Assembly: GCA_016212665.1 (NCBI GenBank)
Contig: JACREZ010000032.1
Span: forward strand, 65,566 to 129,565
Length of the DNA: 64,000 nucleotides
Direction of reading: 5' to 3'
Source: Ignavibacteriota bacterium
GTDB taxonomy: Bacteria > Bacteroidota > Ignavibacteria > UBA10030 > SZUA-254
Position numbers and translations under genes: made by a program. Under the pieces are notes generated by a model. It searched no databases. It was given only the letters and a program-made list of their open reading frames with translations, and was not told where the DNA came from. Below, piece after piece: positions 1,955 to 55,255 of the stretch (position 1 is its first letter; every line of letters starts with the position of its first letter).

Positions 1955-2003
1955 TGTGAAAACATTCTTTGTTTGGTATATTGGCTAACCGTTTTTTGAA
2001 TTT

Positions 2004-2879: not shown

Positions 2880-2880
2880 A

Positions 2881-3010
2881 CGTGATGGAGTAAGGGATTT
2901 CTCTAAGTTTCCTGTTTCAGTTTCCTGTTTTCAGTTTTCTGTTCCCAGTTCCTGTTTACTGAGTACTGAATACTCCACCACTCCATCACTCCAATACTCC
3001 ATCACTCCAT
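2881..3010. repeat. low-complexity short tandem repeats (gtttcctgttt..., cactccat...) in a convergent intergenic spacer
   Basis: Repeated words are visible directly: gtttcctgtttcagtttcctgttttcagttttctgttcc, then ccaccactccatcactccaatactccatcactccatt. Confidence 0.6.
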
Positions 3011-3015
3011 TGAGT

Positions 3016-3750
3016 TCACGTTCCCTTAGCTGCCTTCTTTGCCGCACGCGTTGCCGCCGCTTTCTTCTTTCCTAAGCGTTGTGCTTTCGTCGGACCGGAT
3101 AATACTTTCTTCCCCAACTTCTCCAACAACTGCGGATGCGTGTACATCAATTGTGCTTCTGCTGTCTTCACAAATGCAGTAATCCATTTCGCCAAGTTCG
3201 CGAAGGCGGTCTTCTTATCTTTCGTTTGGCTTTGGGTCGTACCTACTGCACTGCTCTGTGCAGAACTGAGAGCGGCATAGACTTCCACTTCCGCTTGTTC
3301 AGCAACGAGCCGCTCCCCATTGTAGCCCCATTTTGCCAGTTCGGTTTTGATGGTGTCTGTCTCTAACGAATTTTTATAGGCGATACGTGCGGCGTTGAGA
3401 AACGTGGCTTCGGTCCTTGGCACTGCAGAATTAAACCCAAGTATTTCAATATCGGTGGGGGTAAGATGCGCGAGTGAAGTCTTCTTCAAACTCATATACT
3501 TTTTATGAATTTCCAACTGCTTGAAGTCCTCTGCTTTCGACGCTTCCTTCTGTTTTGCTTTCACCGACTTTTTCGTCGCTGTACTGGCAATTGCGATGTT
3601 GTATAACTCCCAACCTTCTCCCATCCGCTCATCGGTATAACCGCAGTTCACGAGTAAGGGGCGCAACTCGGCATCTTCGCTCCCGTTTTTCAGGACGACA
3701 TATGCCTTCGCTAATTGCTGTTGTTCTGATTGACTTGCATTTGTTTTCAT
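3016..3750 (-). CDS. hypothetical protein with Lys/Ala-rich C-terminal tail
   Basis: 244-aa ORF in a region of higher GC. The C-terminus is ...RLGKKKAAATRAAKKAAKGT. No recognisable catalytic motif. Confidence 0.5.
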   Translation of the reverse strand: MKTNASQSEQQQLAKAYVVLKNGSEDAELRPLLVNCGYTDERMGEGWELYNIAIASTATKKSVKAKQKEASKAEDFKQLEIHKKYMSLKKTSLAHLTPTDIEILGFNSAVPRTEATFLNAARIAYKNSLETDTIKTELAKWGYNGERLVAEQAEVEVYAALSSAQSSAVGTTQSQTKDKKTAFANLAKWITAFVKTAEAQLMYTHPQLLEKLGKKVLSGPTKAQRLGKKKAAATRAAKKAAKGT

Positions 3751-10501: not shown

Positions 10502-12712
10502 TTATCCTTGTTGCGCCGCCGCAAACATTTGTTGCGTTTCTTTCCTGCTATCGCGTGCGATGAACATTTCAAGTAATGCAAGCATCAGCGCAAGAGCGAG
10601 ACAATGCTTCCACAACTCGACACCGAAACGAGATTGAGTTACTGTTATTTGAACATCTTCCGGTTTATCAAGCGTTGTAATGGCTGCTGATTCTATGCCG
10701 AACTGCTTCCAGAATTTAGCCAGTGCATCCGATTCAATTTTTCTTCCATCCGATTCATTCTTGTTTGTATTGACTGCTATAATGGTTAGCAATTCGTTTT
10801 GATTATTGAGTTGATAAAATCCCGATTGTGTCAATTTTTTCAACCCGATTGATAACCCTGAACCTTGTCGTTGCGTACCTGACTGCTTTGTATTTTCACT
10901 CGATTGCGAAACCAATTCTTCCATTCCGTCGGGGGAATTCAACTTAAATGTTCCAGACATCAACGCGAGCGGAACGTTTTGCAGATTTACTACCGGTTCA
11001 TCACCGGTTGTAAACGAGTATTGAGTTTTTCCCCTCGATGAAGTATAAACAACCGAGCGATACATCAACGGCACAAAAATTCCCTTCACCGGAAAATCAG
11101 ACCAAGAGAGTGTTGGCGCGGCTGAGTAGAATAATATCTTTCCGCTTCCAAGATTATGTTCGGAGAAAAATGCTGAACCATCACTCAGAGAGATAATCAT
11201 GTGCGCTTCTTTTCCTACCGTACGAGCCAATGTTTTCAGAATCGAAGGAGATTCCACATTCAATTTATTTTGGGCTGATGTTGTTTGGTTCTTTTCAAAG
11301 ACTGTTGCAAACAACGGGTGGTCATAATCAATTTCCTTGAAAGAAAGCGACGAGGTTGACTGCTCGCTCCCTACAACTCGTTCAACCTGTGGAATCGAGA
11401 GCGAAGTAAGTAATGCTCTGCTTATTTCATCTTGCTGATAATTCGATGATGGGTAGAGTACTAATCCGCCGCCGCCTGAAACAAAGTTCTTTATTTTACC
11501 AACACTGCTCAACGTCAATCCATCAGGAAACGACACAACAAGAACATCGAACTTATTTATATCAAGAAATTGAAAATCTTTTGCTGTCGTTTGTTTGATG
11601 TCGAACAGCGCATGTCCTTCCTGATTATCTCCCGAACGAAGCGCGAGCATGGGGAACCTGCTTTCGTTTTGAGAATTGGAAACAACTGCGACAGATATTT
11701 TTTCAGGAACATGAATGGTGAAGTAACGGCGGTTGTCTTGTTCGACTGCATCAGTTTCTAACTCAACATATCCTTTAACAAAACCGGATTTTTTTGGTGT
11801 GAGTGAAAAATCAAGTGTTGCCGAACTCCATGGGTCAAGCCGCACGCTGTTTTGCGCCACACGTACTCCTTCAAGAAACACACTCACAACATAATTCTGC
11901 TGAACATTGCCGCTAAAGTTTCTGATGGAGGTAAATACATTCACCGGTTTATCTTTTTCGACAAGTGTGGTTTTCACTTCAACAGAATCAATCGCCACAT
12001 TTGCAGAAGCACTCGTTCCAAGATTGATAAGGAAGAATTTTACATTTACATCAAACAATGATTGTGAAGGTTGATTCTGAGGCGCAAGCATTTCTGTGAA
12101 CAGGGTCTGTTGCATGTCGCTGATGACATAAACTTCCTTGTTAGCATTCTTCGACTCGGACAGCAATTTCGAGGAGAGCCGAATTGCATCATTCAACGGA
12201 CGAGTTACGGATGAAATTGAAATGTCACTTACAATCTTTCTGAGCGAACGGAAATCGTGCGTGGCAGGTGAAATTGTAGCGTCCGGCAAATCGGAAAGTT
12301 TCAGGAGAAAGACCTCATCACCTTCAGTCAGTAAGTCAATCAACTTCAGGATATTCTCTTTTGATTGCTTGAGCAATTCGCCCCGTTCATCGGACGCACT
12401 CATGCTAAATGAATCATCAACAATAAATACTACTGAGGAATGAGCATTCCCTCCGATGGTTCCGAGCAATGTCCCCCGAAATGCAGGTCGTGCAAATGCC
12501 AATACCAACAACAAAACCAACAGCGTTCGAATAATCAGCAACAACAATTGCCGGATTTTCAGTTTTCGTATTTTCGTCTGTTGTAATTCCTTCAAAAACC
12601 GTAATGTGCTGAATTCGATGGTTCTGAGTTTCCGAAGGTTCAATAAATGGAGAATAACGGGAATTGCCGCAGCAAGTGTCCCAAAGAGAACAAGGGGATT
12701 AAGAAAAGTCAT
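10502..12712 (-). CDS. BatA-like N-terminal transmembrane domain + von Willebrand factor A domain membrane protein
   Basis: The N-terminus LNPLVLFGTLAAAIPVILHLLNLRKL matches the aerotolerance-regulator N-terminal double-TM domain. The MIDAS-type DxSxS motif is present (FIVDDSFSMSASDE). Confidence 0.7.
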   Translation of the reverse strand: MTFLNPLVLFGTLAAAIPVILHLLNLRKLRTIEFSTLRFLKELQQTKIRKLKIRQLLLLIIRTLLVLLLVLAFARPAFRGTLLGTIGGNAHSSVVFIVDDSFSMSASDERGELLKQSKENILKLIDLLTEGDEVFLLKLSDLPDATISPATHDFRSLRKIVSDISISSVTRPLNDAIRLSSKLLSESKNANKEVYVISDMQQTLFTEMLAPQNQPSQSLFDVNVKFFLINLGTSASANVAIDSVEVKTTLVEKDKPVNVFTSIRNFSGNVQQNYVVSVFLEGVRVAQNSVRLDPWSSATLDFSLTPKKSGFVKGYVELETDAVEQDNRRYFTIHVPEKISVAVVSNSQNESRFPMLALRSGDNQEGHALFDIKQTTAKDFQFLDINKFDVLVVSFPDGLTLSSVGKIKNFVSGGGGLVLYPSSNYQQDEISRALLTSLSIPQVERVVGSEQSTSSLSFKEIDYDHPLFATVFEKNQTTSAQNKLNVESPSILKTLARTVGKEAHMIISLSDGSAFFSEHNLGSGKILFYSAAPTLSWSDFPVKGIFVPLMYRSVVYTSSRGKTQYSFTTGDEPVVNLQNVPLALMSGTFKLNSPDGMEELVSQSSENTKQSGTQRQGSGLSIGLKKLTQSGFYQLNNQNELLTIIAVNTNKNESDGRKIESDALAKFWKQFGIESAAITTLDKPEDVQITVTQSRFGVELWKHCLALALMLALLEMFIARDSRKETQQMFAAAQQG

Positions 12713-12808
12713 CTACGAGAGAAAATTGCATTCAAAGTTAAACATAGCCTGCTCAAATGACAGAAAAATTTCAGTAAAAAACAACATTGCTTCGTGTAAT
12801 GAACTTTT

Positions 12809-12816
12809 GTATATTT
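12809..12816 (+). promoter_or_regulatory. putative Bacteroidetes-type -7 promoter box (TAnnTTTG) for tRNA-Pro
   Basis: TATATTTG lies 15 nt upstream of the tRNA 5' end. Confidence 0.35.
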
Positions 12817-12830
12817 GCCACGTTCGATTC

Positions 12831-12904
12831 GGGATGTAGCGCAGCTCGGCTAGCGCGCCTGCCTTGGGCGCAGGAGGTCCCGGGTTCAAATCCCGGCATC
12901 CCGA
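12831..12904 (+). tRNA. tRNA-Pro (anticodon TGG)
   Basis: Cloverleaf folds by hand. Acceptor stem GGGATGT pairs with GCATCCC. D-loop carries GG. Anticodon stem CCTGC/GCAGG with loop CTTGGGC (anticodon TGG). T-arm is CCGGG-TTCAAAT-CCCGG. Confidence 0.85.
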
Positions 12905-13146
12905 CTCTTACTTGTTGCGCCCATTTGATGTGGATTCTGAATATTACTTGTAGAACGGAATTCCTACATTAATTTTCTCCTTTGTCAACCCCGCTTCACC
13001 TGTTATTTTGAAAGATTTAACGCGGTGACAATATAAATCAGCAAAAGAACAAAATTTCTGTTGCTTTTTAGATTCAAATTCATTAATTTGCCAAACGAAA
13101 AATGCGTATGAGCATTTTTCAATAATATTTTTCAAAAGGATTTTTC

Positions 13147-25084: not shown

Positions 25085-26281
25085 TTGTACCTTCGACATT
25101 CAATGGCAGACAAGGCATACATAACCCCAAACGTTTTTAAATGGGCAAGAGAATCGGCAAGAATGTCCGAAGAAACTGCTGCTGCAAAAGTTTCTGTATC
25201 TGTCGACAAACTGAAAGAATGGGAAACAGGAACTAACCAACCTACCATTAGACAAGCACAAACCTTGGCAAAAGCTTACAAAAGACCTTTTGCTTTATTC
25301 TTTTTACCGGAAATTCCAAAAGACTTTCAGCCTCTTCAAGACTTCAGAAAGAGTGGCTCAAAATCATTAAGCACTGCTTCAGTATTTATTATCCGTGAGA
25401 TTCAACAAAAACAATCATGGATAAGTGAACTGAATGAAGAAAATAATGAAAATAAAATTCCATTTGTCGGCAGATTTTCAATTAAAGACAATCCGGTAAA
25501 TGTTGCAAATGATATATTAAATACATTTGGCATTACCCCGGCTAACTACAAAACTGAAAATCCAATTAAAGAATGGATAGACAAAGCAGAGTCGAACGGA
25601 GTATTCATTTCACGTACAAGTTTTATTCACTCACGACTTAAATTAGATTCAGAAGAAATTCAAGGTTTTGCAATTGCAGATCCTTTTGCACCCTTTGTTT
25701 TTATTAACTCTGACGATTGGAATGCACCACAATTATTCACACTTGTACATGAACTTGCACATCTTTGGATAGCTGAAACTGGTATTTCAAACAACATTGA
25801 ACCGGAAATTAAAAATAAAGATAAGTTTCACCCCATTGAGTTGTTTTGCAATGAAGTTGCTGCGCATGCTTTAATACCGGAAAACTTCATGAACAACATA
25901 AATAAAAACACTTTTGATAATTCAATGGAAGTTTTTAAGGTTGCAAAAAAATTAGGGGTTAGTTCATTTGCTTTTTTAGTGAGAGCGTTAAACCTCAATC
26001 TTATTTCAATCAGTGTTTATCAAGCATTGAAGCGAGAAGCGGATGTTGAATACAACGCTTTTCTGAAAAGAGAAGCAGAAAATAAAGCAAAACAAAAGAA
26101 GAAAGAAAAACCCGGTGGTCCAAACTATTTTCTCTTACAACTTAATAGAAATAGTCGGCTATTTACTCAAACAGTTTTAGATGCGTTTCGTGGAGGTTTT
26201 ATTGAACCTACTCAAGCAAGTAATTTACTTAATGTTCGAGTCAATAAATTTCAAAAATTAGAGGCACAGTTATATAAATGA
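25085..26281 (+). CDS. XRE-type HTH fused to ImmA/IrrE-family Zn-metallopeptidase domain (COG2856-like)
   Basis: N-terminal HTH region followed by the HExxH motif VHELAHLW of the DUF955/ImmA peptidase fold. Confidence 0.75.
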   Translation: MYLRHSMADKAYITPNVFKWARESARMSEETAAAKVSVSVDKLKEWETGTNQPTIRQAQTLAKAYKRPFALFFLPEIPKDFQPLQDFRKSGSKSLSTASVFIIREIQQKQSWISELNEENNENKIPFVGRFSIKDNPVNVANDILNTFGITPANYKTENPIKEWIDKAESNGVFISRTSFIHSRLKLDSEEIQGFAIADPFAPFVFINSDDWNAPQLFTLVHELAHLWIAETGISNNIEPEIKNKDKFHPIELFCNEVAAHALIPENFMNNINKNTFDNSMEVFKVAKKLGVSSFAFLVRALNLNLISISVYQALKREADVEYNAFLKREAENKAKQKKKEKPGGPNYFLLQLNRNSRLFTQTVLDAFRGGFIEPTQASNLLNVRVNKFQKLEAQLYK

Positions 26282-26784
26282 GCACAAAGGCAGATTTATA
26301 TTGTTTAGATGCCAATGTACTTATTCAAGCTTGGCTAAAATACTATTCACCCAAATTTTGCTCCGAGTATTGGGATGTTCTTAATCAGTTGGGAATCCAA
26401 AAAAAGATTTTTCTCCCTGCGTTAGTTTATGAAGAAATAACTCGGACTGAAGATGACCTATCGCATTGGTTAAATAATAGTAACATCCCAATTCACAAAA
26501 TTGATGAACCTGTCACCAAATGTTTGCAATCCATATATTCTCAAAATCCTCTACACAAAAATTTAGTTGACAACACAAAGTCAAGGTCGTTAGCTGACCC
26601 TTGGTTGATAGCGCATGCAATGAATGAAAGTGCGACTGTTGTTACAAAAGAAGAAAAGGTTACTGCGCTTAATTCAAACAAAATAAAAATACCGAATGTA
26701 TGTGAAAACATGGCTGTAAGGTGCATTAACGACTTTGAATTTATAGACGAAATGAACATTAAGTTTTCATGTAAATTGCAGTGA
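26278..26784 (+). CDS. DUF4411-family PIN-like protein
   Basis: 168 aa starting MSTKADLYCLDANVLIQAW..., an acidic PIN-like core. It overlaps the upstream HTH-ImmA gene by 4 nt. This pairing is a known two-gene module. Confidence 0.6.
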   Translation: MSTKADLYCLDANVLIQAWLKYYSPKFCSEYWDVLNQLGIQKKIFLPALVYEEITRTEDDLSHWLNNSNIPIHKIDEPVTKCLQSIYSQNPLHKNLVDNTKSRSLADPWLIAHAMNESATVVTKEEKVTALNSNKIKIPNVCENMAVRCINDFEFIDEMNIKFSCKLQ

Positions 26785-27115: not shown

Positions 27116-28300
27116 ATGAAAGCAGCTGTTGACTCCATATTAGATCTCTCGACTTGGGAACTACCAAATCCCAAAAATCCCGAGACGGCATATTTTCCTG
27201 CAAAGGACGGTGTTGGCAGGCAGATGGCACGTTGGATTCTTCCTGATAGTCTATCTCCACTCGACTTGTTCTGTTACATCCGGGCACGCTTCGGTCCGCC
27301 CAATGGTCCAACAATGTTGATCCGACAAAACTCAACCGACAATTTGATTCAATGGCATTACACCCTGCGAACAGGCACAATACCTATCGACATTGTTGGA
27401 TTGACATCACGCATTGAGGTCTCGTTTACTCACGTTCCTGAATTCTCTCGGGCTGATCAGGAGAAACTCGTCGAGAACATCAAGAAAGACATCTCCCATC
27501 GTGCACCAGAAATAAAGGCGGTGCGGCAACAGTTGGAGAAATACTCTCTTTTCATCAATCCATACAAACGTTTGTCTGACATCCTTGATGATTTGCAGAA
27601 CAGGCTGCAGGGTCTGAAACTCGACGAGATTCAATTGCCAAGGACACCTACCACTGCGGTTACAAAGAAAGAAGCGGAAGAATGGCAAGCCGAAGCCAAG
27701 CGTTGTCAAGTGGTATTCCGTGAAGGTGCTTTACTCGGCACCAGCATCAGGATGATTGCTCCCGTTCTTGGTGAGTCTTTCGTCAACCTGCTGATATTCA
27801 GTCTTGCCAAGCCAGAAATCAAGAACGATGAGCGACTATACAAGGATTTGATAAATAAGCAGATAGATATTAGAATCAAAAGTCTACATCTCTATTGCCA
27901 AGGGTTTGCAAAACCAATCGATGCGTCAAGCGACTCATTCAAGGACTTCCACACATTAATGAATCGTAGAAACGATATTCTCCACGGCAACATCGACCCG
28001 CTGAGGTTGAAGTATGACGAGGCGTACTTCTATGGAACAATTCCCCTTTTCACAACGCAAAAGGATTTTGCAACAAGAGGCATCAAGGAGTATCTGAGTG
28101 GTGTTGAGCCAGAGATTGCTCTTGCCGACATTCGCACTGTCACGAGGTTCGTGGAGTTTGTCTTGAATCATCTTTCGCCGGATTACATATCTTCGGTCGA
28201 AATGATAATGAATGATCCAAAGCCCGGATGGAGAGAGGACACCAAGCGAATCGGTATCCTTTTTTCCGGAGTTGCCGAAATGTTATTGATCAAGGAATGA
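27116..28300 (+). CDS. hypothetical protein (island gene)
   Basis: 394-aa ORF with GC higher than its neighbours and no recognisable motif. Confidence 0.5.
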   Translation: MKAAVDSILDLSTWELPNPKNPETAYFPAKDGVGRQMARWILPDSLSPLDLFCYIRARFGPPNGPTMLIRQNSTDNLIQWHYTLRTGTIPIDIVGLTSRIEVSFTHVPEFSRADQEKLVENIKKDISHRAPEIKAVRQQLEKYSLFINPYKRLSDILDDLQNRLQGLKLDEIQLPRTPTTAVTKKEAEEWQAEAKRCQVVFREGALLGTSIRMIAPVLGESFVNLLIFSLAKPEIKNDERLYKDLINKQIDIRIKSLHLYCQGFAKPIDASSDSFKDFHTLMNRRNDILHGNIDPLRLKYDEAYFYGTIPLFTTQKDFATRGIKEYLSGVEPEIALADIRTVTRFVEFVLNHLSPDYISSVEMIMNDPKPGWREDTKRIGILFSGVAEMLLIKE

Positions 28301-30032: not shown

Positions 30033-31850
30033 ATGTCTCCTTCTTCTTTTCATTCTTTCCATATTCCGGTCATGGGCTTGGCGTATACCGTGGACACGCC
30101 GCTCAAAGTAGCACGCTTCGGAATTAACTCTGTCGTTTCCATTATTGAAGATAACCTGCTGGAGGAGATGCGAAAATTTCATTGCATGCAGGCAAACGAA
30201 CAGTACATCCCCATCGGGAAGTACGAGTTCGATTGCCGTTCCCGCCGCGTGACTGAGTATTTGAATTTGTTAGAAAGAATCCTCCTCAGACAAATGGAAA
30301 AAATTAAGTCTGAACAATTTGAAGACGGGACAGATATTGTAAAGTATTTTGAACTGCTTCCCTCTTCTTCTCCACTACGCTATCTCTTCGACCAAATGAT
30401 GAACTTGGATGCAGGAGAAGAGAAATTGTTACTTCAGGAATCGCTCCGTGAAATCATTACCGCCGGTGCTATTGATGTAAACATTATGACCAAATGCGAC
30501 AGAACAAATTATTCTCAGTCGGGAGATGCATTACCCGTTGAGTATTCGGATGCGATGGCAGCCCTTCGCGGATTTGCAAACAGTCAACTTCGTTCTTCGG
30601 TTGTCTTCTCTGCGGGAATGAATCCACGCCTGTTCACCTACTGTGAAACATTCAAAGATTTTTTCCCGGATGAACATCAAAACCTGAATAAGAAAATCAC
30701 TCTGAAGGTAAGTGATTTCAGGTCAGCATTTATTCAGGGTAAATTTCTGGCAAAAAAAGGATTATGGGTTTCCGAATACAGAATCGAATCGGGTTTGAAT
30801 TGCGGCGGCCATGCATTTGCGACCGATGGTTATCTGCTCGCTCCGATATTGGACGAGTTCAAACATAAAAAAGAAGAATTAACCGCCGAACTGTTGGAGA
30901 TGTGTAACCATTCACTTCTCCAAAAAGAGATGAGAACGTTTTCGCACAAGCCAAATGTGAAAATCTCCGTTCAAGGCGGCATTGGTACAGCAAATGAACA
31001 TAATTTTCTGTTGGAACATTTTCAAGTTGACAGCGCGGGCTGGGGAAGCCCGTTTTTACTTGTGCCGGAAGTAACAAATGTTGATGAAGAAACCCTGCAC
31101 AATCTTGCTTCAGCAAAACAAGAGGATTACTACTTAAGTAACACTTCGCCTCTCGGTGTGCTGTTTAATAATTTTAGAAAGAGTTCTGCCGAACAGGAAA
31201 AAAAGAAAAGAATTGAAAACGGAAATCCCGGAAGCGCATGCTTCAATAAATATTTATCGTTCAATACTGAATTTACTGAAAAGCCCATTTGTGTTGCTTC
31301 ACGGGAATATCAGAATTTGAAAATCAATCAACTTACAGAACAACAACTTCCACCCGATGTTCTTGCAAAGCAAATAGAAAAAGTGACTGAAAAGGAATGT
31401 ATCTGCCAATACCTCGGTACATCTGCATATCTGAAAAACGAAATTCCTCCACCGCATAAAATTCAGGAAGTTACAATTTGCCCCGGACCCAATCTTGCAT
31501 ATTTCTCCAATACATTTTCATTGCGAGAAATGATTGACCACATTTACGGAAGAAAGAATATTCTCAACTCATTGCACCGACCAAATATGTTCATCAACGA
31601 GTTGAAGTTGTATGTTGATTATCTGGAAAAAGAAATTACCGATAGCATCGGTTCCGTGACGGAGAAAAAGAATAAATATTTGAAAACCTTTAAGGACAAT
31701 CTCCTTTCAGGAATTGAATATTATAAAACATTAGCGCAATCCATGATTCGGGAAACGGAACACTACCGTCAACATTTTGATGAAGCGTTAGGTAACCTCG
31801 AACAGTATTTAATGAATCTGGAAGTACCGGAGGCGTTTGTTCTAGAATAA
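30033..31850 (+). CDS. large hypothetical protein (island gene)
   Basis: 605-aa ORF with no recognisable domain. Convergent with the SIR2-like gene. Confidence 0.5.
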   Translation: MSPSSFHSFHIPVMGLAYTVDTPLKVARFGINSVVSIIEDNLLEEMRKFHCMQANEQYIPIGKYEFDCRSRRVTEYLNLLERILLRQMEKIKSEQFEDGTDIVKYFELLPSSSPLRYLFDQMMNLDAGEEKLLLQESLREIITAGAIDVNIMTKCDRTNYSQSGDALPVEYSDAMAALRGFANSQLRSSVVFSAGMNPRLFTYCETFKDFFPDEHQNLNKKITLKVSDFRSAFIQGKFLAKKGLWVSEYRIESGLNCGGHAFATDGYLLAPILDEFKHKKEELTAELLEMCNHSLLQKEMRTFSHKPNVKISVQGGIGTANEHNFLLEHFQVDSAGWGSPFLLVPEVTNVDEETLHNLASAKQEDYYLSNTSPLGVLFNNFRKSSAEQEKKKRIENGNPGSACFNKYLSFNTEFTEKPICVASREYQNLKINQLTEQQLPPDVLAKQIEKVTEKECICQYLGTSAYLKNEIPPPHKIQEVTICPGPNLAYFSNTFSLREMIDHIYGRKNILNSLHRPNMFINELKLYVDYLEKEITDSIGSVTEKKNKYLKTFKDNLLSGIEYYKTLAQSMIRETEHYRQHFDEALGNLEQYLMNLEVPEAFVLE

Positions 31851-32413
31851 ACTAACTCAAGTTGGCCGTTTAATAATAATTGCTAAGATAACTCAATATT
31901 GCCACATGACCATAAACAGTCACGCCAGTAAAATCAAGTCCAATAAAATCGGACGACATAAAACAGTCCCGTTTACGAGGCTTACTAATCATTTATGGTA
32001 ATACTACAGAAAATCGGAATAAACTAATCCTCTTTAAAGCGTCACGTTCCCCTTTCTGAGGAAACAAACATTGGAACACTATTGTTACCTTAGGGATTAT
32101 TACCAACTCATCTCGAAAGCATAACTATTCATTCTCATTAGGAACGATGGACTTCAAGAACACATGAGGGTAAGCTCAACTAAATCCTTCCGACAAATCC
32201 CTCCAGACCATCTGAATAATATTCGCACTTTGGAAAGAGAAGCCGATATCGTAATTCAGCTTCGTGACCATGTTGCACAACTATTACTTTTGGTTTTAAT
32301 TCCCGAGCCTGATAGGCTCGGATAAACAAAGAACGAATCCCGATATCTTCCTGTGGTAAAGAATAACCAATTATTACCCATGTGTTTGAAGACCGAAGAA
32401 ATTCGAGGGAATG

Positions 32414-33301
32414 TTACCACACTTCTACAATATTTGGATTATGATTTTCCCGGACAAACGACGGGGCAATGAGAGTTGAGCGAAGTTGGCGATTGGAACA
32501 ATGGCATGTACTAAAATAATCATCGTCCTTTTTATATGCCTGATGAACAATTGATCCTTCAAAATTAATATACATATGATCACACACGTCGCAATATAAC
32601 CAGTTGATGGAGCCATGCAGTTTGTAAAATCGAACTTTTGCACTGACTGCTCTGTCATGAATTGTCCCTGGCTCCACATCTCGCCATGCAAAACCAAAAT
32701 CAAACTCGTTACTTATTTTTAGAATATTGCTTTGATAATATTCATACAATTTACTTTCAATTCCAATATCATAATTCGTTGTAATTACACCCAAGGAATT
32801 TTCTTGCAGTTGTTTTATTATCCATTGGATAAATTTTCCTGTCACGGATTTATTAGCAGGGAATAGTTTTTCATATCGTTCTTGATAAACCTGAACGATT
32901 AAAAATGATATTGCCTGGTCGAGCAATTGGCGAAATTCTGTCAATTGATATCCAGACAACCGGGATGTGAGCGATTTTTCTTCCGAAAGAGAAAAATCAA
33001 GCATGGAAAGAACTTCTGTAATTAAAGGTAAATTCTTCTCTACGTCGGACATACAAAATATTCCATCGCCGGTATATTCCTTCGATTGGTTGATTGATTC
33101 TTGAAGATATTCTAACCCCGATAACATTTCATTTAAATATCCGGAAAGGATTTCCCTTCGCCGTTGATTTTCAGTTTCTGTGTTGAATTTATTATAAAGA
33201 TTATTCTTTGATAATTCCCGTAAAATTAAAGGGAAGATTTGTGGCGTCGTCATATACCCAAATGGTACCGATGCTCCCGCGCCTAAAAATAATGCTGTCA
33301 T
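32414..33301 (-). CDS. SIR2_2-family (SIR2-like, defence-associated) protein, N-terminal portion upstream of an in-frame TAA
   Basis: The N-terminus MTALFLGAGASVPFG is the characteristic SIR2_2 start motif. The same frame continues past the TAA at 32414-32416 for 77 more codons (32183..32413) that contain VIIGYSLPQEDIGIRSLF, the SIR2_2 C-terminal motif. Confidence 0.7.
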   Translation of the reverse strand: MTALFLGAGASVPFGYMTTPQIFPLILRELSKNNLYNKFNTETENQRRREILSGYLNEMLSGLEYLQESINQSKEYTGDGIFCMSDVEKNLPLITEVLSMLDFSLSEEKSLTSRLSGYQLTEFRQLLDQAISFLIVQVYQERYEKLFPANKSVTGKFIQWIIKQLQENSLGVITTNYDIGIESKLYEYYQSNILKISNEFDFGFAWRDVEPGTIHDRAVSAKVRFYKLHGSINWLYCDVCDHMYINFEGSIVHQAYKKDDDYFSTCHCSNRQLRSTLIAPSFVRENHNPNIVEVW

Positions 33302-33421
33302 GTTGTTCCTTTTATGAATTGAGTATGATGAAATCTGTCATTTCTTGTACCGTCAAGATCTTCCGTGACGGATGATTACCCTGAAAGTTCGTGTCAAGTC
33401 GTTATACAACTCCATAATAAT

Positions 33422-34666
33422 TCAATGGTAGACACTCTCTTTATTATCATATTTCTTTAGGGTCGTTAGTAACATCATTTTTACCTCAAGCGAGGTTTCG
33501 TTTTGGTAGAATAAGTTTAACTGTCTTTTTACTCTATCGCGTACATTCTCATCGCTGTTGTTTGCAAATGAACCGAGCACGTAAACACATAATCCCTTTG
33601 CTTCGAGATCGTTCGTCCTCAAAAACTTATTATATAATGGTTTTATGGAACGAGAATCCTGTATTCGGTACAGAAACGATGCGATTTTTTTTCTTTCGAT
33701 CGCGCTTCCGGAATCGAGCAAACTCACTGCTTTGAAATAAAAATCCTGTGACAAAATATCTTTACGTGTCCCTGCCGATGTCAGTGTTCCGACCGAATCA
33801 TGTTCTGTGAGCGCCATAAGATACAATGACAATTCTTCAAAACTCTCTGAGGCAATACTATCTCTCACCGTCACTGCGATTTCTTGTAAAAAGGGAGTCT
33901 CAACATTTGAAAGTTTTGATTGTAGTTTCAGTTGTTCGAACGGGTTTTTTTTGACTTTTATATTGTCTAAGATTTTTTTCGCTTCTTCGGAAGATATGGT
34001 TTTTTCTTGTAGAAATGGTTGTGCATACGCTATATTGAAAACATCGATCGGAAAAAAACGATGCGATGTCAGTTTATTCGTTTTTTCCCGAAATAATATC
34101 TTCATCGGTATCGAACCTGCATATTCAATGAACATTGTTACACGATCGTTTTCGACATGATGTAACAAATCTTCAGCGCTAAAACGAAGTTCACCGTATG
34201 TCTCCCATCCTCCTTGACTATTGCCAAAATATTTTGCAAGAACTAACGTTTGCATCTGATTCATATCGGATTTAGGAATATGAAGTATCCATTCATAGAC
34301 AAAGACACTTCCTTTTATTTTTTTCTTGATAAACATTCCGTCACCCATCGCCTCATACTGTAATAATCCTATCGGCAACGACCTTTCATCACTCCCAATT
34401 ATTTCTCCTCTAATAACTAAATCGTCTGTTTCTGTAATTACAGGATACACGACTAAAAACAGCATGACACCAATAATCAAACCTAACAAAATAAACATGC
34501 CTTTATACACAAAGACCTTTACTTTCATCGGCATGGAAGGGAAATACTTGTCAAGAAAATTGTAAATTTTCGTTGCGTGAACATCCAACGCTTCTGTTTT
34601 ATTTTTTGCCATAACTATCCTTTCATTATTGTATGTGAATATGATGTAATATTGTTTTTTTTTCAA
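33422..34666 (-). CDS. hypothetical membrane-anchored protein, upstream partner of the SIR2-like gene
   Basis: 414 aa with a TM segment GMFILLGLIIGVMLFLVVYPVI and a soluble C-terminal region. Same strand, 120 nt upstream of the SIR2-like gene. Confidence 0.55.
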   Translation of the reverse strand: MKKKQYYIIFTYNNERIVMAKNKTEALDVHATKIYNFLDKYFPSMPMKVKVFVYKGMFILLGLIIGVMLFLVVYPVITETDDLVIRGEIIGSDERSLPIGLLQYEAMGDGMFIKKKIKGSVFVYEWILHIPKSDMNQMQTLVLAKYFGNSQGGWETYGELRFSAEDLLHHVENDRVTMFIEYAGSIPMKILFREKTNKLTSHRFFPIDVFNIAYAQPFLQEKTISSEEAKKILDNIKVKKNPFEQLKLQSKLSNVETPFLQEIAVTVRDSIASESFEELSLYLMALTEHDSVGTLTSAGTRKDILSQDFYFKAVSLLDSGSAIERKKIASFLYRIQDSRSIKPLYNKFLRTNDLEAKGLCVYVLGSFANNSDENVRDRVKRQLNLFYQNETSLEVKMMLLTTLKKYDNKESVYH

Positions 34667-34769
34667 CAGTGGTTACTGTTCGTCCCAACATTCATATTCG
34701 ATGATGTTCAAGTCTGATCACGAATTGAACTTTCTTTTGTTAGACAAATTCTGACCGCGAATGTGTTCA

Positions 34770-35276
34770 TTAGCTCAATGCATGGAGAATGAATTTTATT
34801 TTCTCTCCTCTCGACCGCAATTTCCTCAGCGACTCATCAAGCAGTTCCCCGCATTTATAGATTGCATTGTTCTTCTTTCTAATATACCGGAAAAGAAGCC
34901 CGACGGAGAGAAACATCATGGCAACCAAAAAGACAGTTAGCCGCAGGACAAAAAAGAGCGTATCAACTGCTTCAATTTGTACAGTCGTTGTTGTTGTCAC
35001 TCCACTGCCGAGGTCTTGGGTAAAGGCAGGCAGACTGAGTGTAAGGGAAAATATCCATCCTGTAAACGCAAGGACAAACAGTGCATAAAAGAAAAACTCA
35101 ATCACGATGCCGAGACTTTTCATGAGTATCCTACCAAACGCATTCTGTTTGATTGACTGATAATACTTGTCAAACGATTGAATCATTGCATCCGTCTCCG
35201 ATAATTGATTTGTGTAATCAAGCCGGATATCGGGTGGAAGTATTGTGTTATTATTTTGTTCGGGTTGTTGGGTCAT
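34770..35276 (-). CDS. hypothetical membrane protein
   Basis: 168 aa with two or three TM segments. Overlaps the upstream gene by 4 nt. Confidence 0.45.
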   Translation of the reverse strand: MTQQPEQNNNTILPPDIRLDYTNQLSETDAMIQSFDKYYQSIKQNAFGRILMKSLGIVIEFFFYALFVLAFTGWIFSLTLSLPAFTQDLGSGVTTTTTVQIEAVDTLFFVLRLTVFLVAMMFLSVGLLFRYIRKKNNAIYKCGELLDESLRKLRSRGEKIKFILHALS

Positions 35277-36481
35277 GGTTGTGTTCCTTTGATTTGATAT
35301 TCATCATCAAAAACTTTCAAAACAAATTCTGTTGCAAACTCTTTCCCTTTAGGGGTTAAGATAAATAAACCACCCTGATCCTGCATGAGACCAAGTGTTT
35401 GAAAATACTGTATAGCTGTTGCTGGAATTGCAGTTCTTGGTAAGAATGGGGGATTAGAATTTTGAAGTTCTATAATTGTTTCGAAATGTTTTCTCAATTG
35501 TTGATTTGAAATAATTGTTCTAAGTTCCTTAGATAATTGTGAAGGTGTATTTTCATCTTTAATGCTTAATAATTCTTTTTCAAGTTGTATAATTTTTTCA
35601 GTAAGCTGATTATTATCGTGTTTTAATTCATGAATTTGATTAATCAATTCTTCTCTTTGGTTTTTTATGTCATTAAGTTTCAAACTCAATTCACTCTCGT
35701 TATTTAACACACGTCGAAATTCTCTATCCAATTCTTTGTACAAAGGAGATTCTTTAATATGATTATCAATATTGTTTATTCTATTACTTAAACCATTGAC
35801 TTCTTTCTTCAATGTTTCATTTTCAAAAGTAATGTTTTTGTCATGCTCAAGAAGTTGCTCATATGTTTCTTTTATTTTTTCAAATGCTGTAATCCTATCT
35901 TTTAACAAGACTATTTCTACATCTTTTGTATCAATTTCTTTTGAAAACTCTTCTTTTTGTTTTTGTAATGAAGTTTTAATCTCTAAAGTCTGCTCTAAAG
36001 TCAACAGCTTTTCTTTTTCATTCTTTAACTCTGTTATTTGATTTTCTAATACTACGATTTCTTTTTCTTTCGCATCGACAACTTTATTAAACTCTTCTTC
36101 CTGTTTTTGAATTGACTTTCTAATATCTATTGATTGTTCCAATGTCAGCAGTTGATTCTTTTCAATTTCGTTCTTAATATCCATTTGTCGTTTCTTGTGT
36201 ATTAACCAAATTTTCAAAAAGACTGTTGAGGCAAAAGGATATACCGAAACAATCAACATTGCAGAGAGTAACGGAAACAAAATTGTATTTGATATATCAA
36301 GATAATTTGCTTCAATAAACTGCAACCTATCAATGATTCTCAAACTCATATCATCATTAAACAGGTAATAAATAATTTTCCAGTTCCATGCAAACCATGA
36401 TAACACAAGAGCGCCCGAAAGGGGGCTGGATATTCTTTCGTAAAGTGTCAGTTGTATAGATTTTTTTATGTCGTCGAGCAT
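35273..36481 (-). CDS. hypothetical membrane + coiled-coil protein with internal sequence duplication
   Basis: N-terminal TM segments, then a long coiled coil containing a duplicated segment of about 45 aa (LLTLEQSIDIRKSIQKQEEEFNK... and LLTLEQTLEIKTSLQKQKEEFSK...). Confidence 0.5.
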   Translation of the reverse strand: MLDDIKKSIQLTLYERISSPLSGALVLSWFAWNWKIIYYLFNDDMSLRIIDRLQFIEANYLDISNTILFPLLSAMLIVSVYPFASTVFLKIWLIHKKRQMDIKNEIEKNQLLTLEQSIDIRKSIQKQEEEFNKVVDAKEKEIVVLENQITELKNEKEKLLTLEQTLEIKTSLQKQKEEFSKEIDTKDVEIVLLKDRITAFEKIKETYEQLLEHDKNITFENETLKKEVNGLSNRINNIDNHIKESPLYKELDREFRRVLNNESELSLKLNDIKNQREELINQIHELKHDNNQLTEKIIQLEKELLSIKDENTPSQLSKELRTIISNQQLRKHFETIIELQNSNPPFLPRTAIPATAIQYFQTLGLMQDQGGLFILTPKGKEFATEFVLKVFDDEYQIKGTQP

Positions 36482-36709
36482 AATGCTGTTCTTTCAATTA
36501 GTTTTGCATTCGTGTCAGGGGACCCTTCCCCCTCCCACCCCAGTCCTTTCCCTACTTTCCGCCAAAGTGGACAGGTGTATGGAAGGGGAGAGATTCATAT
36601 TATTTTTCAATTCTTGTTTCATACCATTTCATTGAGAAAATATTCAAAAGTATGTCACTCCCTTCCCTTCGGAGAATGGAAGTGCCGGGATGGGTTACTT
36701 CATATCACC

Positions 36710-37582
36710 TCACACCTTCACCACCGCCTCAACTCCGAAGTGATCTGAAAGCCGTGTGGTAGGTGTCGTGGCAAATGGCTGCACAGATACTTTTGTACAG
36801 GAAATGTTGCGTAACAGAGTTCCTTGCCCGTTGTCCGTTGGAAAACGATTGAAGGCGAACATGTAATCGAGTCGAAGTCGGTCACCATCATCATCCGGTA
36901 TCATGTTGCTGTTCTCTTTACAATCCCACGTGTAACCCGGAATTGTAATTTTGCTTTTCTCTCTGAATAAATCTCTTGGAAATCCCAAACTTCCCTTCAT
37001 GGAATTATATTCCTGGTCTACATCACCTATGACATTCATATCTCCACAGAGCATCACCGCAATATCATTTCTCGGTTTGTCATTCTCGTTCGCATGTACA
37101 TCAAGTTGAGTCAGAGCATGTCCGATGAACCGTCGTAGTTGCCGTAGCTGTGAGACGCGTGTCTGCTGGTACTGAACCTCTGACTGAAGATGAGTATTAA
37201 ACAAGAGGAACGTGAATGGCTTTTTACCATCGGTGAATGATAGCCGTGCGCCAAAGATTCCTTTATCAGCCCAGCAATCGGTAAATGAACATTCATTGAA
37301 TTCCTTGTATCCCCAACTTTCGATTGGATGCTTTGATGCAAAGAACAACCCGCTATCTTCATTAAATAGATCATTATCATGGCATTTCGGAACTTGGTGC
37401 TTCAAGGTTCGCCCAAACCCTTCAACAAACATTTCCCTGATGTCTTCATCAAAAACTTCTTGCAAACAAATAATATCGTATTTGTTCGCATTGATGGCTT
37501 TGATAATTTTCGCGGCACGTTCTTCACCGCCGGGACCGGGAAGCATTTTAACATTGAACGTGAGAATTTTAAGTGTCGGCAT
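36710..37582 (-). CDS. endonuclease/exonuclease/phosphatase (EEP) family protein, sphingomyelinase-like
   Basis: Starts LKILTFNVKML...DIICLQEV and ends ...SDHFGVEA, the EEP catalytic pattern. Confidence 0.7.
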   Translation of the reverse strand: MPTLKILTFNVKMLPGPGGEERAAKIIKAINANKYDIICLQEVFDEDIREMFVEGFGRTLKHQVPKCHDNDLFNEDSGLFFASKHPIESWGYKEFNECSFTDCWADKGIFGARLSFTDGKKPFTFLLFNTHLQSEVQYQQTRVSQLRQLRRFIGHALTQLDVHANENDKPRNDIAVMLCGDMNVIGDVDQEYNSMKGSLGFPRDLFREKSKITIPGYTWDCKENSNMIPDDDGDRLRLDYMFAFNRFPTDNGQGTLLRNISCTKVSVQPFATTPTTRLSDHFGVEAVVKV

Positions 37583-37630
37583 AATTGTTCCTTTTGTTTA
37601 AATGAGAGAGAAAGATAAATAGATGAGGAA

Positions 37631-38431
37631 TTAACTTTTGATACATTGACGAAGTTTACGTTCATTTATTGTTGGACTCTTCCAAATCATTTCCAACTTT
37701 GACCGTAGGAACGCATCAGGTTCGAGTAATGTTTTTTCGAAGAGGAATAACACCCGCTTTTTCACTGTTCTTATATCCAGATGTGAACCAAAACTTTTTA
37801 TACAATAATAAATAAGTTCTGAACATGATAACGAATGAAAATTCTCAAAATCAAACTTAAAGTCATATTCTTTGCCCAGACATCCTAACGCAATTCGTTT
37901 GACGATGGGAAAAACATCTTGGAACGGCACACTAACTCCCGACTTGAGTTTTGTTACAATGTCTATTTCTTCGTTTGAAAATTCCTTTTGAGGGACGAGC
38001 GGGAGAGTTATTCTTGCATCGGGTTTGATATAATCAGGGAATCTCATAATTGCCATATAATCACACCGGCAGAAATTCAAAACATCTTCTACGAATACGC
38101 CTTCAGCCATCGAATGGATAACCATTTGCTCTCCTGCCTGAAAGACCTGTTCCCCTTTTTCATTCGTTACATGTCGGGCGTCTTCAGGAAGAATCCTCCC
38201 CACATATAATCCCGCGTGACTAAAATAGCCGGGAATAAAATAACCATCGAGATAATTCTTAAATCCTCGAAGGAGGATATCGCCGGGTTTCACTAAATTG
38301 ATGACACACCTGATATCTTTTCCCTTGATAAGATAACCTCCGGGATCGTATAAAAGAAAAAGGGGCCATTTGAAAATTTTTATATCTCCAAATACAGTCA
38401 AAAATTTTTCAAATAATGTTTTTTTATTCAT
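37631..38431 (-). CDS. YiiX/DUF830-like permuted papain-fold hydrolase (tentative)
   Basis: Pattern GDILLRG....YFSHAGLYVG and a later Cys-containing segment. The assignment is tentative. Confidence 0.4.
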   Translation of the reverse strand: MNKKTLFEKFLTVFGDIKIFKWPLFLLYDPGGYLIKGKDIRCVINLVKPGDILLRGFKNYLDGYFIPGYFSHAGLYVGRILPEDARHVTNEKGEQVFQAGEQMVIHSMAEGVFVEDVLNFCRCDYMAIMRFPDYIKPDARITLPLVPQKEFSNEEIDIVTKLKSGVSVPFQDVFPIVKRIALGCLGKEYDFKFDFENFHSLSCSELIYYCIKSFGSHLDIRTVKKRVLFLFEKTLLEPDAFLRSKLEMIWKSPTINERKLRQCIKS

Positions 38432-38446
38432 CGTGGTTCCTTTTTC

Positions 38447-39859
38447 CTACGCTTGATCATGTACTATGTGCAACTCGTTTCGGATTGAATCCGGAAGTAA
38501 TGATGGATCAACCCAGCGTGTTCTTTCATCCAATGGACGGAGGAATGGATCATGCTTTGAAGAAACAACCTTAGCGTTCTCAATTGTGATCTCCCGACAA
38601 TCATGCAAATCAATTTCAAACTGACGTCGTACGTGTTCTGCAAATTCTTGATTATAGATAATGACATTACTCTCTGTATGATAAAACGTTGAACCAGATG
38701 CGATATTGTAAGAACCGACAGAAGCAACAACATCATCAATCACCAAATTCTTTGAATGAAACGCTCCCGGTTTCTGCCATTCAAACACTTTGACGCCATT
38801 TTGAATCAGGCGACGAAAATGATTGCTGCTTTCCCAGTACATCCATCCCATCAACCCGTTGAGCATCAATGTACGTGATGCTTTCCGGGAATTTGTGATG
38901 AGCCTGACTTCAACGCCCCGTTGTACTGCATCGGCAAGTGCTTCGGCAATAATCCGTGGCGGACGAATACCATGACATCCCCAAAAAATGTAATGCCGTG
39001 CAGCGCGAAACATCTGCAAATACGCATTCGTGATTGGCAATCGTTGTTCATCGTATGGTTTGTGAGAGATGTAACGTACACGATACGGACCAGTAGAATT
39101 CAACATCGGAAATAGCACCGTTGATTGTTTGTTGATGAATTCGGATTCCATGTTACGAACGTTCTCGTAGAGTTTTTCAAGTGACGTATCACACTTGTAC
39201 TTTCCTTGCGCCATGGCACGGTAAAGAAAAAAGTCTTTGATGAATCGTCGTTGAATATCTGACACGATTGGTCCGGCGAGGTAAACGTCTGTATCCCTCC
39301 ATGCTTTTACCTCGATTCCACCATACGCATATTTGTTTCCCCAGTTGATGCCACCGAGTATCGCTTCCCGCCCATCTATCACCATATACTTTTCATGAAA
39401 ATGTCTTCGAAGCTTTGTTTTTAGATTTTTTTTAAATTGAAGAAAAGGATGAGAAGATTTCAAATCCGGCATAAGGTTGCGAAACATGCTATGGTAACGG
39501 ATTGATTCTGCACCTCCTTTCACCATGGAACGGAGGATTCCACCGCTAAAGGTACTGTACATCACTCCATCATCGAAGATGAGTCGCGCATTAACAGATT
39601 CCTTTTCTTTTTTTACTATCATATCCCGAAGACGATAACTTGTTTCATCTCGCATCAGAGAAAAGGCAACGATGTGAATGGTATTTGTTGCATTCTCAAT
39701 AAGTTCCCATCTTTTTTGATATGATTCTACACCGCTCGGCAACAATGTAACAGCATTTCCTTCTCGAATAACAGTATGTGTCAACCTGTCTGTTTCTCTT
39801 TCGAACTCAGGACTGAGGATTGGATGACCTCTGCTGATATGCAATGCGATGTCGTACAT
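38447..39859 (-). CDS. phospholipase D / cardiolipin-synthase family protein (two HKD motifs)
   Basis: HKD motif 1 is HEKYMVIDG. HKD motif 2 is HSKNLVIDD. Confidence 0.8.
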   Translation of the reverse strand: MYDIALHISRGHPILSPEFERETDRLTHTVIREGNAVTLLPSGVESYQKRWELIENATNTIHIVAFSLMRDETSYRLRDMIVKKEKESVNARLIFDDGVMYSTFSGGILRSMVKGGAESIRYHSMFRNLMPDLKSSHPFLQFKKNLKTKLRRHFHEKYMVIDGREAILGGINWGNKYAYGGIEVKAWRDTDVYLAGPIVSDIQRRFIKDFFLYRAMAQGKYKCDTSLEKLYENVRNMESEFINKQSTVLFPMLNSTGPYRVRYISHKPYDEQRLPITNAYLQMFRAARHYIFWGCHGIRPPRIIAEALADAVQRGVEVRLITNSRKASRTLMLNGLMGWMYWESSNHFRRLIQNGVKVFEWQKPGAFHSKNLVIDDVVASVGSYNIASGSTFYHTESNVIIYNQEFAEHVRRQFEIDLHDCREITIENAKVVSSKHDPFLRPLDERTRWVDPSLLPDSIRNELHIVHDQA

Positions 39860-54243: not shown

Positions 54244-54777
54244 TTAAGCATTCATGATGGGCGGCTGAGTCATTGGCGGCGGCGGCATGTATTGATGTTT
54301 CGGTTTGAAAATACTGTAGCCGATCAATCCGCCAAGCAAACCGAACAACGGGTCAATTATTAATGAGATAAAGAGACTCATGAAAAATTGTCCGATGGAA
54401 GCAGATTCGCGAAACCCTTCTTCCATTCCTTCCCATGCTTCTTCCGGTATGTTTAAATCCATGTTCTGCAATGTTTGCATGATGAACTCGCCCATAATAT
54501 TTCCGAAAATGACGAGGAAAAATGTTCCAAGAACTGAACCGATGATTGCTCCGAACACACCGGAAAGAGCGCCGACCGCCATACAATCGCCGGAGGTAAA
54601 CGGTGCTGTGTCGGGAGTAAAATTATTTTTGTAAAACATCACGGCAAGCATCCCGCCAAGCATCACGCCGGCACAACAAATACAATTGATGATGCTGAGA
54701 AATGGTACTGCCGAAATAACTCCCATGATGATTCCACCATAGAGAGCGGGAATAGTTTTGTCAGGTTTGGGATTCAT
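54244..54777 (-). CDS. hypothetical polytopic membrane protein (DUF4199-like)
   Basis: Multi-TM protein. The ORF-track start at 54831 overlaps the upstream gene by 71 nt, so an internal Met (MNPKPDKT) start at 54777 is preferred. Confidence 0.45.
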   Translation of the reverse strand: MNPKPDKTIPALYGGIIMGVISAVPFLSIINCICCAGVMLGGMLAVMFYKNNFTPDTAPFTSGDCMAVGALSGVFGAIIGSVLGTFFLVIFGNIMGEFIMQTLQNMDLNIPEEAWEGMEEGFRESASIGQFFMSLFISLIIDPLFGLLGGLIGYSIFKPKHQYMPPPPMTQPPIMNA

Positions 54778-55255
54778 AGTAAGTTTTTTTGTTGTGAATA
54801 TATTTTGTTGAGAGTTCGACACATCCTTCAATGAAATACGGAGTCAGAATTATTCCGGTTGCAACTCCGAAGAGCGAGCCGGTGATACTTCTTGTCACGA
54901 GCGTACTATCATGCACGCCAAGCCAACTACCGACGACATCGAGCAACATCGGGAGAAGTGCAACTAAAAGCCATCGGGAATTCCATGAAAACTTTTTTGA
55001 GATGAGCGGAGAAAGCAAGACGCCAAAGAAAAATCCGAAATAAATTGTCGAGCATCGCGCACACACTGCCAATTTTTCTCCAAACAAGTGAAGCGAGTGT
55101 GAATCGTATTGGTGACAAATTCTTGAATAGATTTTGTACGATTGAGTTGCAAAGAGCGATGCATCAAATAACACCGCAAGCGGCGGCAAGAAAAGAAGCA
55201 AACACCAGACAAACGCTCCTCCGAGCAAAAAGTAATATGCAGTTGTATGCTTCAT
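54761..55255 (-). CDS. DUF2085-family membrane protein
   Basis: Conserved CHQ...CARC pattern in a 4-TM protein (ICHQYDSHSLHLFGEKLAVCARCSTIYFG). Confidence 0.5.
   Translation of the reverse strand: MKHTTAYYFLLGGAFVWCLLLFLPPLAVLFDASLFATQSYKIYSRICHQYDSHSLHLFGEKLAVCARCSTIYFGFFFGVLLSPLISKKFSWNSRWLLVALLPMLLDVVGSWLGVHDSTLVTRSITGSLFGVATGIILTPYFIEGCVELSTKYIHNKKTYYESQT

Follow-up and report, generated by a model that had tools for sequence, protein, structure and literature searches.

The interrupted gene and its surroundings

A gene of the SIR2 type that is broken by one in-frame stop codon is described here from a 64,000-nt stretch of DNA of an Ignavibacteriota bacterium (assembly GCA_016212665.1, contig JACREZ010000032.1, positions 65,566 to 129,565), which is referred to in its entirety as the window and from the first letter of which all positions are counted. 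On the minus strand, an open reading frame (ORF) at 32414..33301 (-) encodes a protein of 295 amino acids (aa) with the N-terminus MTALFLGAGASVPFG, terminates in a TAA and is continued in the same frame by exactly 77 sense codons, HSLEFLRSSNTWVIIGYSLPQEDIGIRSLFIRA..., until a TAG is reached at 32180-32182. This layout, including a spacer of 120 nt to the next gene upstream, had been given in a preliminary description of the locus and is exact in the sequence. The 295-aa product is identical to the database entry 'hypothetical protein HY960_10995' from a metagenome-assembled Ignavibacteriae bacterium. The features of the locus are the following:

32180..33301 (-), SIR2-like gene as a whole, joined translation of 373 aa
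32417..33301 (-), the SIR2-like gene up to the stop, codons 1-295, with the GAGAS loop, TNYD, His229 in KLHGS and C237/C240/C266/C268
32414..32416 (-), in-frame TAA, codon 296, directly 3' of the invariant Trp295; the first base of the codon is plus-strand position 32416
32180..32413 (-), 3' portion of the gene beyond the stop, made up of 77 sense codons and the TAG (32180-32182), with the invariant W308, G312-Y313-S314, P316, E318-D319 and R323
33302..33421 (-), spacer of 120 nt between the membrane-protein gene and the SIR2-like gene
33422..34612 (-), gene of a membrane-anchored protein of 396 aa with its ATG at 34612, not part of the SIR2 unit
31938..31954 (-), terminator-like hairpin, a weak match to the consensus only, about 225 nt 3' of the TAG of the full-length gene

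The SIR2-like gene is located within the stretch of lowest GC content in the window (0.34-0.37). No terminator-like site is predicted in the 120-nt spacer on the minus strand, and the hairpin at 31938..31954 possibly represents the end of the original transcription unit. A scan for sigma-70 promoters yielded sites no more frequent than in shuffled sequence, with a consensus that is unsuited to the host phylum.

Homology across the stop codon

Homologues were searched for among 5.8 billion proteins, with 507 being found; alignments of 21 and 118 sequences were used and the column of the stop codon was read in 20 homologues. The joined 373-aa translation matches the SIR2_2 family PF13289 with 26.0 bits (E 1.1e-5), a marginal pass of the gathering cut-off of 24.5, and the match extends over residues 172-344 and spans the stop. 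The 295-aa product alone reaches 19.3 bits, under the same cut-off. Among the homologues listed, about half have a precomputed PF13289 match. The assignment as a SIR2_2-type gene, for which a search with the joined translation had been proposed as a check, is thereby upheld, and the 77 downstream codons, initially read as the conserved C-terminus of such a protein, are its true C-terminus, with the PF13289 match and the homologues both spanning the stop.

The approximately 120 best homologues, 340-470 aa long and 35-45% identical, span 98-100% of the joined sequence, with only P0028 (94%), P0090 (76%) and the window's own product below 97% coverage. The relatives do not end at the position of the stop, which had been considered as a sign of a chance match, but continue through it, the column being occupied by Lys in 10, Arg in 8 and Gln in 2 of the 20 and preceded by an invariant Trp; all have a sense codon at the codon-296 column and none a stop. 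With these residues in the column, a change of one base, AAA to TAA or CAA to TAA, explains the stop. Downstream of it, 24 of the 25 positions of at least 90% conservation are kept, including the GYS-P-ED motif, the mean identity to homologues is 52% as opposed to 36% upstream, and the 77 codons are free of a second lesion. Such good conservation indicates that the lesion is single and recent, or that the gene is still read through. The closest relative other than the protein itself is about 41-45% identical. Judged from these alignments, the region 32180..33301 (-) is one interrupted gene, with its continuity across the stop reflecting homology and not chance.

Nature of the in-frame TAA

TAA is the commonest stop codon in the window, terminating 23 of the 43 large ORFs, and alaS and several other genes of the window end in the same TAA-C context as the SIR2-like gene. 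An alternative genetic code with reassigned TAA is excluded by this ordinary usage. A contig from Logan, an independent assembly of SRR12113407, is identical over 2.1 kb with the TAA included, and although the two assemblies, made with different assemblers, derive from this one read set, the recurrence of the same TAA demonstrates that the base is present in the reads and argues against an artefact of the assembler. An intact allele was searched for in JGI metagenome contigs with a 36-mer that allowed any base at the mutated site, without a match.

The window was also scanned for pairs of long open stretches parted by one stop. Thirteen places were flagged, among which there is no other interrupted gene in the 64 kb, the rest lying at or just upstream of ordinary ORF boundaries; what had looked like a frameshift at 54244-55255 proved to be the adjoining genes of DUF4199 and DUF2085, each separate. 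A split gene with a separately translated C-terminal part is rejected on the grounds that the conserved C-terminal motif has no start codon ahead of it: of the in-frame ATG, GTG and TTG codons 3' of the stop, the first is a TTG 29 codons on, past the GYS-P-ED motif.

Fold of the family and effect of the stop

The intact homologue P0002 (44% identical) was modelled with AlphaFold2 on the alignment of 118 sequences (predicted local distance difference test, pLDDT, 93.9; predicted template modelling score, pTM, 0.92), and the stop was mapped onto this model. The predicted fold is a seven-stranded Rossmann sheet closest to the SIR2 protein of SIR2-HerA, in agreement with a profile-to-PDB sequence search, and GAGAS (residues 7-11), N176-Y-D178 and H229, corresponding to the loop that binds nicotinamide adenine dinucleotide (NAD), the xxNxD motif and the catalytic His, are invariant in the family. 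The stop falls on K271 of P0002, inside the helix 264-279. Beyond it, the strands 282-286, 313-317 and 337-339 and three to four helices are lost in the model, equivalent to the last three of the seven sheet strands and nearly half of the Rossmann sheet, together with the invariant GYS-P-ED motif; the GAGAS loop, the N/D motif, the catalytic His and a module of four cysteines (Cys4) are kept in the 295-aa product. The loss of three core strands and of the GYS-P-ED motif suggests that this product would be non-functional, unable to fold or to hold NAD+. By analogy to its structural relatives, the intact protein would probably be an NADase.

Genomic context of the SIR2 homologues

The context of SIR2 homologues was read at 58 loci, with all ORFs clustered and the nearest ORFs listed. 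The neighbours are highly varied, with the housekeeping genes GatB and adenylosuccinate lyase among them, and this pronounced heterogeneity suggests that the SIR2 family is a mobile single gene. About three quarters of the loci possess an upstream gene on the same strand, often at most 150 nt away or overlapping. At 5-6 loci, a Peptidase_S8 gene for a protein of about 750-800 aa is found directly 5' of the SIR2 homologue or overlapping it; the S8 gene overlaps or approaches the SIR2 start to a few nt in L006 (5587-9062), L007 (16-3290) and L018 (4735-8070), and is also present in L013, L028 and L059. In several phyla, the SIR2 homologue is translationally coupled to the S8 gene or comes directly after it. 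In the S8 protein, the Peptidase_S8 domain is C-terminal and the N-terminal region is alpha/beta-hydrolase-like, and its best PADLOC match is 'subtilase' (1e-60 to 1e-68), a model that we take to be part of the gasdermin system. The combination may be a protease-coupled SIR2 arrangement; no described 'SIR2 + subtilase' system was found in literature searches.

Further recurrent neighbours are genes for CHAT (2-3 loci), cNMP-binding (2), PhoD-like (2) and bSEFIR (2) proteins and for an unknown family of about 310-370 aa (8), next to TIR, RelA/SpoT, a trypsin-like protease, PDC-S11, PDC-S15 and PD-T4-6. As raw neighbour counts, these findings give the neighbourhood of the family a defence-island flavour.

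Among individual loci, a PhoD-like phosphatase gene is located directly 3' of the SIR2 homologue in L001 (7204-8535), a second metagenome-assembled genome of the Ignavibacteriae from the same sample (HY962), and in L004 (7282-8688) from Nitrospira, the two PhoD-like proteins being 25% identical (E 1.5e-7). In L001 the SIR2 homologue is a few kb away from an AAA_21/RloB pair, and a 690-aa SIR2_2-TPR protein is also encoded nearby (features at 1342-3311 and 11990-13113), a setting that resembles a defence island. In five of the 58 loci (L021, L030, L055, L056, L060), too, the SIR2 gene is fragmented or truncated by frameshifts, stops or a missing N-terminus, which may represent decay or artefact; some of these sequences are presumably from metagenome-assembled genomes built of long reads, in which homopolymer errors could mimic frameshifts.

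The membrane-protein neighbour

The gene upstream of the SIR2-like gene had been described as coding for a membrane-anchored protein of 414 aa. The membrane anchor stands, with one N-terminal transmembrane (TM) helix, and the length has been corrected to 396 aa: the longer version was over-extended from a TTG at 34666, and the ATG at 34612 is the start according to both the database entry and the family alignment. The protein is composed of a TM helix (29-60), a beta-sandwich (64-174), a disordered linker and an ARM/HEAT-like helical repeat domain (208-394); its model has a pLDDT of 81, its PDB matches are weak and generic (importin-alpha, TOG repeats) and it has no PADLOC match. The family is tiny: a word-indexed search gave one homologue, an alignment-based protein search two proteins, and HMMER, run exhaustively over 1.84 billion proteins, 29 representatives. 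Genomic context was read for five members:

P0122, between CorA and the NQR operon
P0142, 3' of DUF900 and an unknown gene
P0124, 3' of PLD, C92 and a small ORF
P0125, 3' of a gene with an SLT domain (lytic transglycosylase)
P0127, 3' of an EEP-like gene

A SIR2 gene is beside none of the five, nor do the incomplete genes downstream in L068 and L069 resemble SIR2. Conversely, no relative of the membrane protein is encoded within 5 kb of the SIR2 gene in any of the 58 homologue loci. The membrane protein is thus a chance neighbour of SIR2 and not its partner, the pairing being seen only in the genome of the window, and the initial proposal of an undescribed or decaying defence module made up of the two genes is not supported, being largely refuted by this missing co-occurrence.

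Upstream of the membrane-protein gene, the following genes are encoded:

35273-36481 (-), 402-aa protein, two genes upstream of SIR2, in which an N-terminal TM region is combined with a long coiled coil
36710-37582 (-), EEP (sphingomyelinase-like) gene
37631-38431 (-), C92 peptidase (amidase) gene
38447-39859 (-), PLD / cardiolipin-synthase-like gene

In the contig L067, proteins 63% and 55% identical to the PLD and C92 proteins of the window are followed by a homologue of the membrane protein, which groups the latter with the upstream lipid-enzyme genes; if it belongs anywhere, the membrane protein belongs with PLD, C92 and EEP. PLD, C92 and the protein with TM helix, beta-sandwich and ARM repeats occur together in the window (33422-39859, minus strand) and in this unrelated metagenome contig (L067, 400-4198), and in L069 an EEP-like gene is located upstream of another member of the membrane-protein family. 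The PLD/C92/membrane-protein group is possibly a conserved envelope- or lipid-related gene set.

Other genes in the window

The gene of the 402-aa protein overlaps by 4 nt the gene of a 168-aa protein with two TM segments, a pair (34770-36481, minus strand) positioned between the EEP and the membrane-protein genes and missing at the matching place in L067, which suggests an insertion. The start of the low-GC stretch is occupied by two overlapping genes:

25085-26784 (+), HTH and Peptidase_M78 (ImmA/IrrE-like) gene overlapping a DUF4411 (PIN-like) gene

This pair looks like a toxin-antitoxin or defence-associated pair. An HTH_26 gene is also found near the SIR2-like gene. Proteins of 605 aa (30033-31850, plus strand) and 394 aa (27116-28300, plus strand) have no match in Pfam, NCBIfam and PADLOC; the gene of the former is convergent with the SIR2-like gene.

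Comparison with named SIR2 systems

The SIR2 family is uncharacterised and fits no named system, in line with the original assessment of the locus; neither the partner genes and domains of the systems compared nor a score above their NCBIfam cut-offs were found. PADLOC gives only partial matches of the SIR2 protein to generic SIR2 models (best 3e-13), with the Aga_SIR2 models matching weakly and partially (7e-8 and 2e-6 over about 80 residues). SIR2-HerA (Nezha; PDB 8w9l, 8j4u, 8yhx, 8sub) provides the nearest fold, yet at only about 15-19% identity. The GYS-P-ED of the family lines up with GY(G/S)-P-(D/E)E in the SIR2 protein of SIR2-HerA, but the NCBIfam model SIR2_antiphage, NF042942, scores 18.9 bits on the window protein against a cut-off of 500. 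Neither HerA nor DUF87 is among the window neighbours, and HerA is absent from the PADLOC families listed for the neighbours of the homologues.

With the canonical sirtuins (CobB, Sir2Af, Sir2Tm, SIRT5), the distance is apparent from the missing PF02146 match at E<=1 and from the 18 bits scored by the CobB-type model NF001753 against a cut-off of 243; the sheet of the window family is seven-stranded and carries a larger helical insert, as in SIR2_2 proteins. Different from Thoeris ThsA, the window protein is SIR2-only, without SLOG or Macro, and no TIR (ThsB) is present among the window neighbours. DSR1/DSR2 and Avs5 have about 800-1000 aa or more and possess a sensor domain or STAND NTPase, whereas the members of the window family have a single domain and about 340-470 aa, and, in contrast to the SIR2-APAZ of SPARSA, the window protein has no APAZ and no pAgo neighbour. 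Lamassu (Sir2-type LmuA with the SMC protein LmuB), considered on account of the 402-aa protein, was rejected, as the matches to LmuB/JetC/SMC are restricted to the coiled coil (E 5.6e-6 or weaker), without an ATPase domain. The bacterial gasdermin-protease operons serve as an analogy for some homologue loci only, those with S8, CHAT or trypsin-like neighbours; in such loci the effector would be SIR2 and not a pore former, its activation by proteolysis would be purely conjectural, and the SIR2-like gene of the window has no adjacent protease. The partner proteases of bacterial gasdermins have been described as caspase-like and CHAT, with subtilases being reported for fungal gasdermins.

A cysteine tetrad in the SIR2 clade

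The motifs C237-x-x-C240 and C266-x-C268, which follow His229, are invariant in 117-118 of 118 members, as is the His itself, and the resulting pattern, His-(7)-CxxC...(25)...CxC, is at the position of the canonical sirtuin zinc module. In 1ma3 and SIRT5, the catalytic His and the first CxxC align with 'YKLHGSLNWLRCxLC' at every residue, with sub-significant E-values of 0.15-0.25, and it is exactly this His-CxxC region to which the NCBIfam CobB-type model weakly aligns. The second pair of cysteines is CxC, in contrast to CxxC in the canonical sirtuins; on the other hand, the SIR2-HerA protein 8yhx has no cysteines at the aligned CxxC position after the catalytic His. The tetrad and zinc module have been described as missing from SIR2_2 proteins, or as 'systematically absent' from sirims (bioRxiv 10.1101/2024.09.18.613514; PMC12700824), whereas the tetrad is invariant in the family considered here. 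Judging from conserved residues and predicted fold, the clade seems to join an immune-type seven-stranded fold with a sirtuin-type putative metal module. Literature searches did not recover a described SIR2_2 clade bearing Cys4. Homologues amount to at least 500 proteins and occur in Acidobacteriota, Gemmatimonadota, Bacteroidota, Nitrospirota, Verrucomicrobiota and other soil and groundwater bacteria.

Origin of the interrupted gene

The locus probably contains a recently nonsense-inactivated copy of an uncharacterised, stand-alone SIR2 NADase gene, itself probably defence-related, that is located by chance downstream of an unrelated membrane-protein gene. Of the options raised at the outset, namely nonsense pseudogene, sequencing error and readthrough, the first is the best supported. 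The intact ancestor would have been a single-domain SIR2-type NAD+-consuming enzyme of about 373 aa, probably one of the anti-phage 'sirim' effectors that deplete NAD+, and its gene a mobile single one that landed beside varied partners. A single-base change of AAA (Lys) or CAA (Gln) to TAA at codon 296 would have occurred recently in the Ignavibacteria lineage, and the loss of a potentially self-toxic effector is a common fate of such genes. Several points weigh against this scenario. An error in the consensus, or a mixed population with the intact allele in many cells, is possible; a preserved tail is equally expected if the gene is still expressed in full by some means; the closest relative, at about 41-45% identity, is too distant to serve as an orthologue for dating the mutation or for examining relaxed selection; and NADase activity and a defence role are proposed from relatives of only about 15-19% identity.

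An artefact of sequencing or of the consensus as the source of the TAA, or a mixed population in which it is one variant, with the gene being intact and functional in most cells, is considered unlikely. Such an origin would be in keeping with the source, a metagenome-assembled genome, with the single read set behind both assemblies and with a tail that displays no decay at all, but would need to reconcile the same base from two different assemblers, the rarity of substitution errors in a short-read consensus, the lack of other interrupted genes in the 64 kb by the in-frame-stop scan and an intact allele that is not on record in the JGI contigs. Lower still is the probability of a two-gene defence module, now in decay, with the membrane protein as sensor or anchor and SIR2 as effector. 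The rarity of the membrane-protein family, its failure to match PADLOC, the lack of co-occurrence in the five members with readable context and in the 58 SIR2-homologue loci and the L067 member that instead follows orthologues of PLD and C92 outweigh the shared strand, the short spacer without a predicted terminator, the low GC content of the region and the tendency of SIR2 homologues to be the second gene behind a close same-strand neighbour.

Low-level full-length expression by stop-codon readthrough or a suppressor tRNA, with the TAA acting as a throttle on a toxic enzyme, is very improbable. The preserved C-terminal tail would be accounted for, as would the C that follows the stop, TAA-C being a somewhat weaker termination context in E. 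coli; yet the same context ends alaS and several other window genes, TAA is preferred over the other stops, the column of codon 296 is a sense codon in every homologue and the only tRNA in the window is tRNA-Pro. To our knowledge, programmed readthrough of UAA has not been established in bacteria. Finally, a function of the truncated 295-aa protein in its own right, such as that of a regulator or dominant-negative subunit, is hardly credible. The N-terminal NAD loop, catalytic His and Cys4 module are kept, but the protein lacks three core strands and the GYS-P-ED motif, which is invariant in the family; among the 120 best homologues, only P0028 and P0090, besides the window's own product, cover less than 97% of the joined sequence.

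Meaning for the SIR2 family

Overall, the locus represents an ordinary pseudogene in a mildly interesting family. Its proper annotation is that of a nonsense-interrupted SIR2-family pseudogene and not that of a 295-aa hypothetical protein, and a 'membrane protein + SIR2' system should stay out of the catalogues of defence systems. As a tentative and somewhat doubtful proposal, the broken gene might be a member of an undescribed, widespread SIR2 clade of about 350 aa that combines a sirim/SIR2-HerA-like fold with an invariant His-CxxC...CxC putative zinc module. If true, the clade would be a structural intermediate between the NAD-depleting immune SIR2s and the deacylating sirtuins, or could instead be a new family of stand-alone or protease-coupled (S8, CHAT, trypsin) defence effectors. 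Common in soil bacteria, without a name or an NCBIfam model and situated among defence genes, the SIR2 family might serve as a test case for the relation between sirtuin deacylases and immune NADases.

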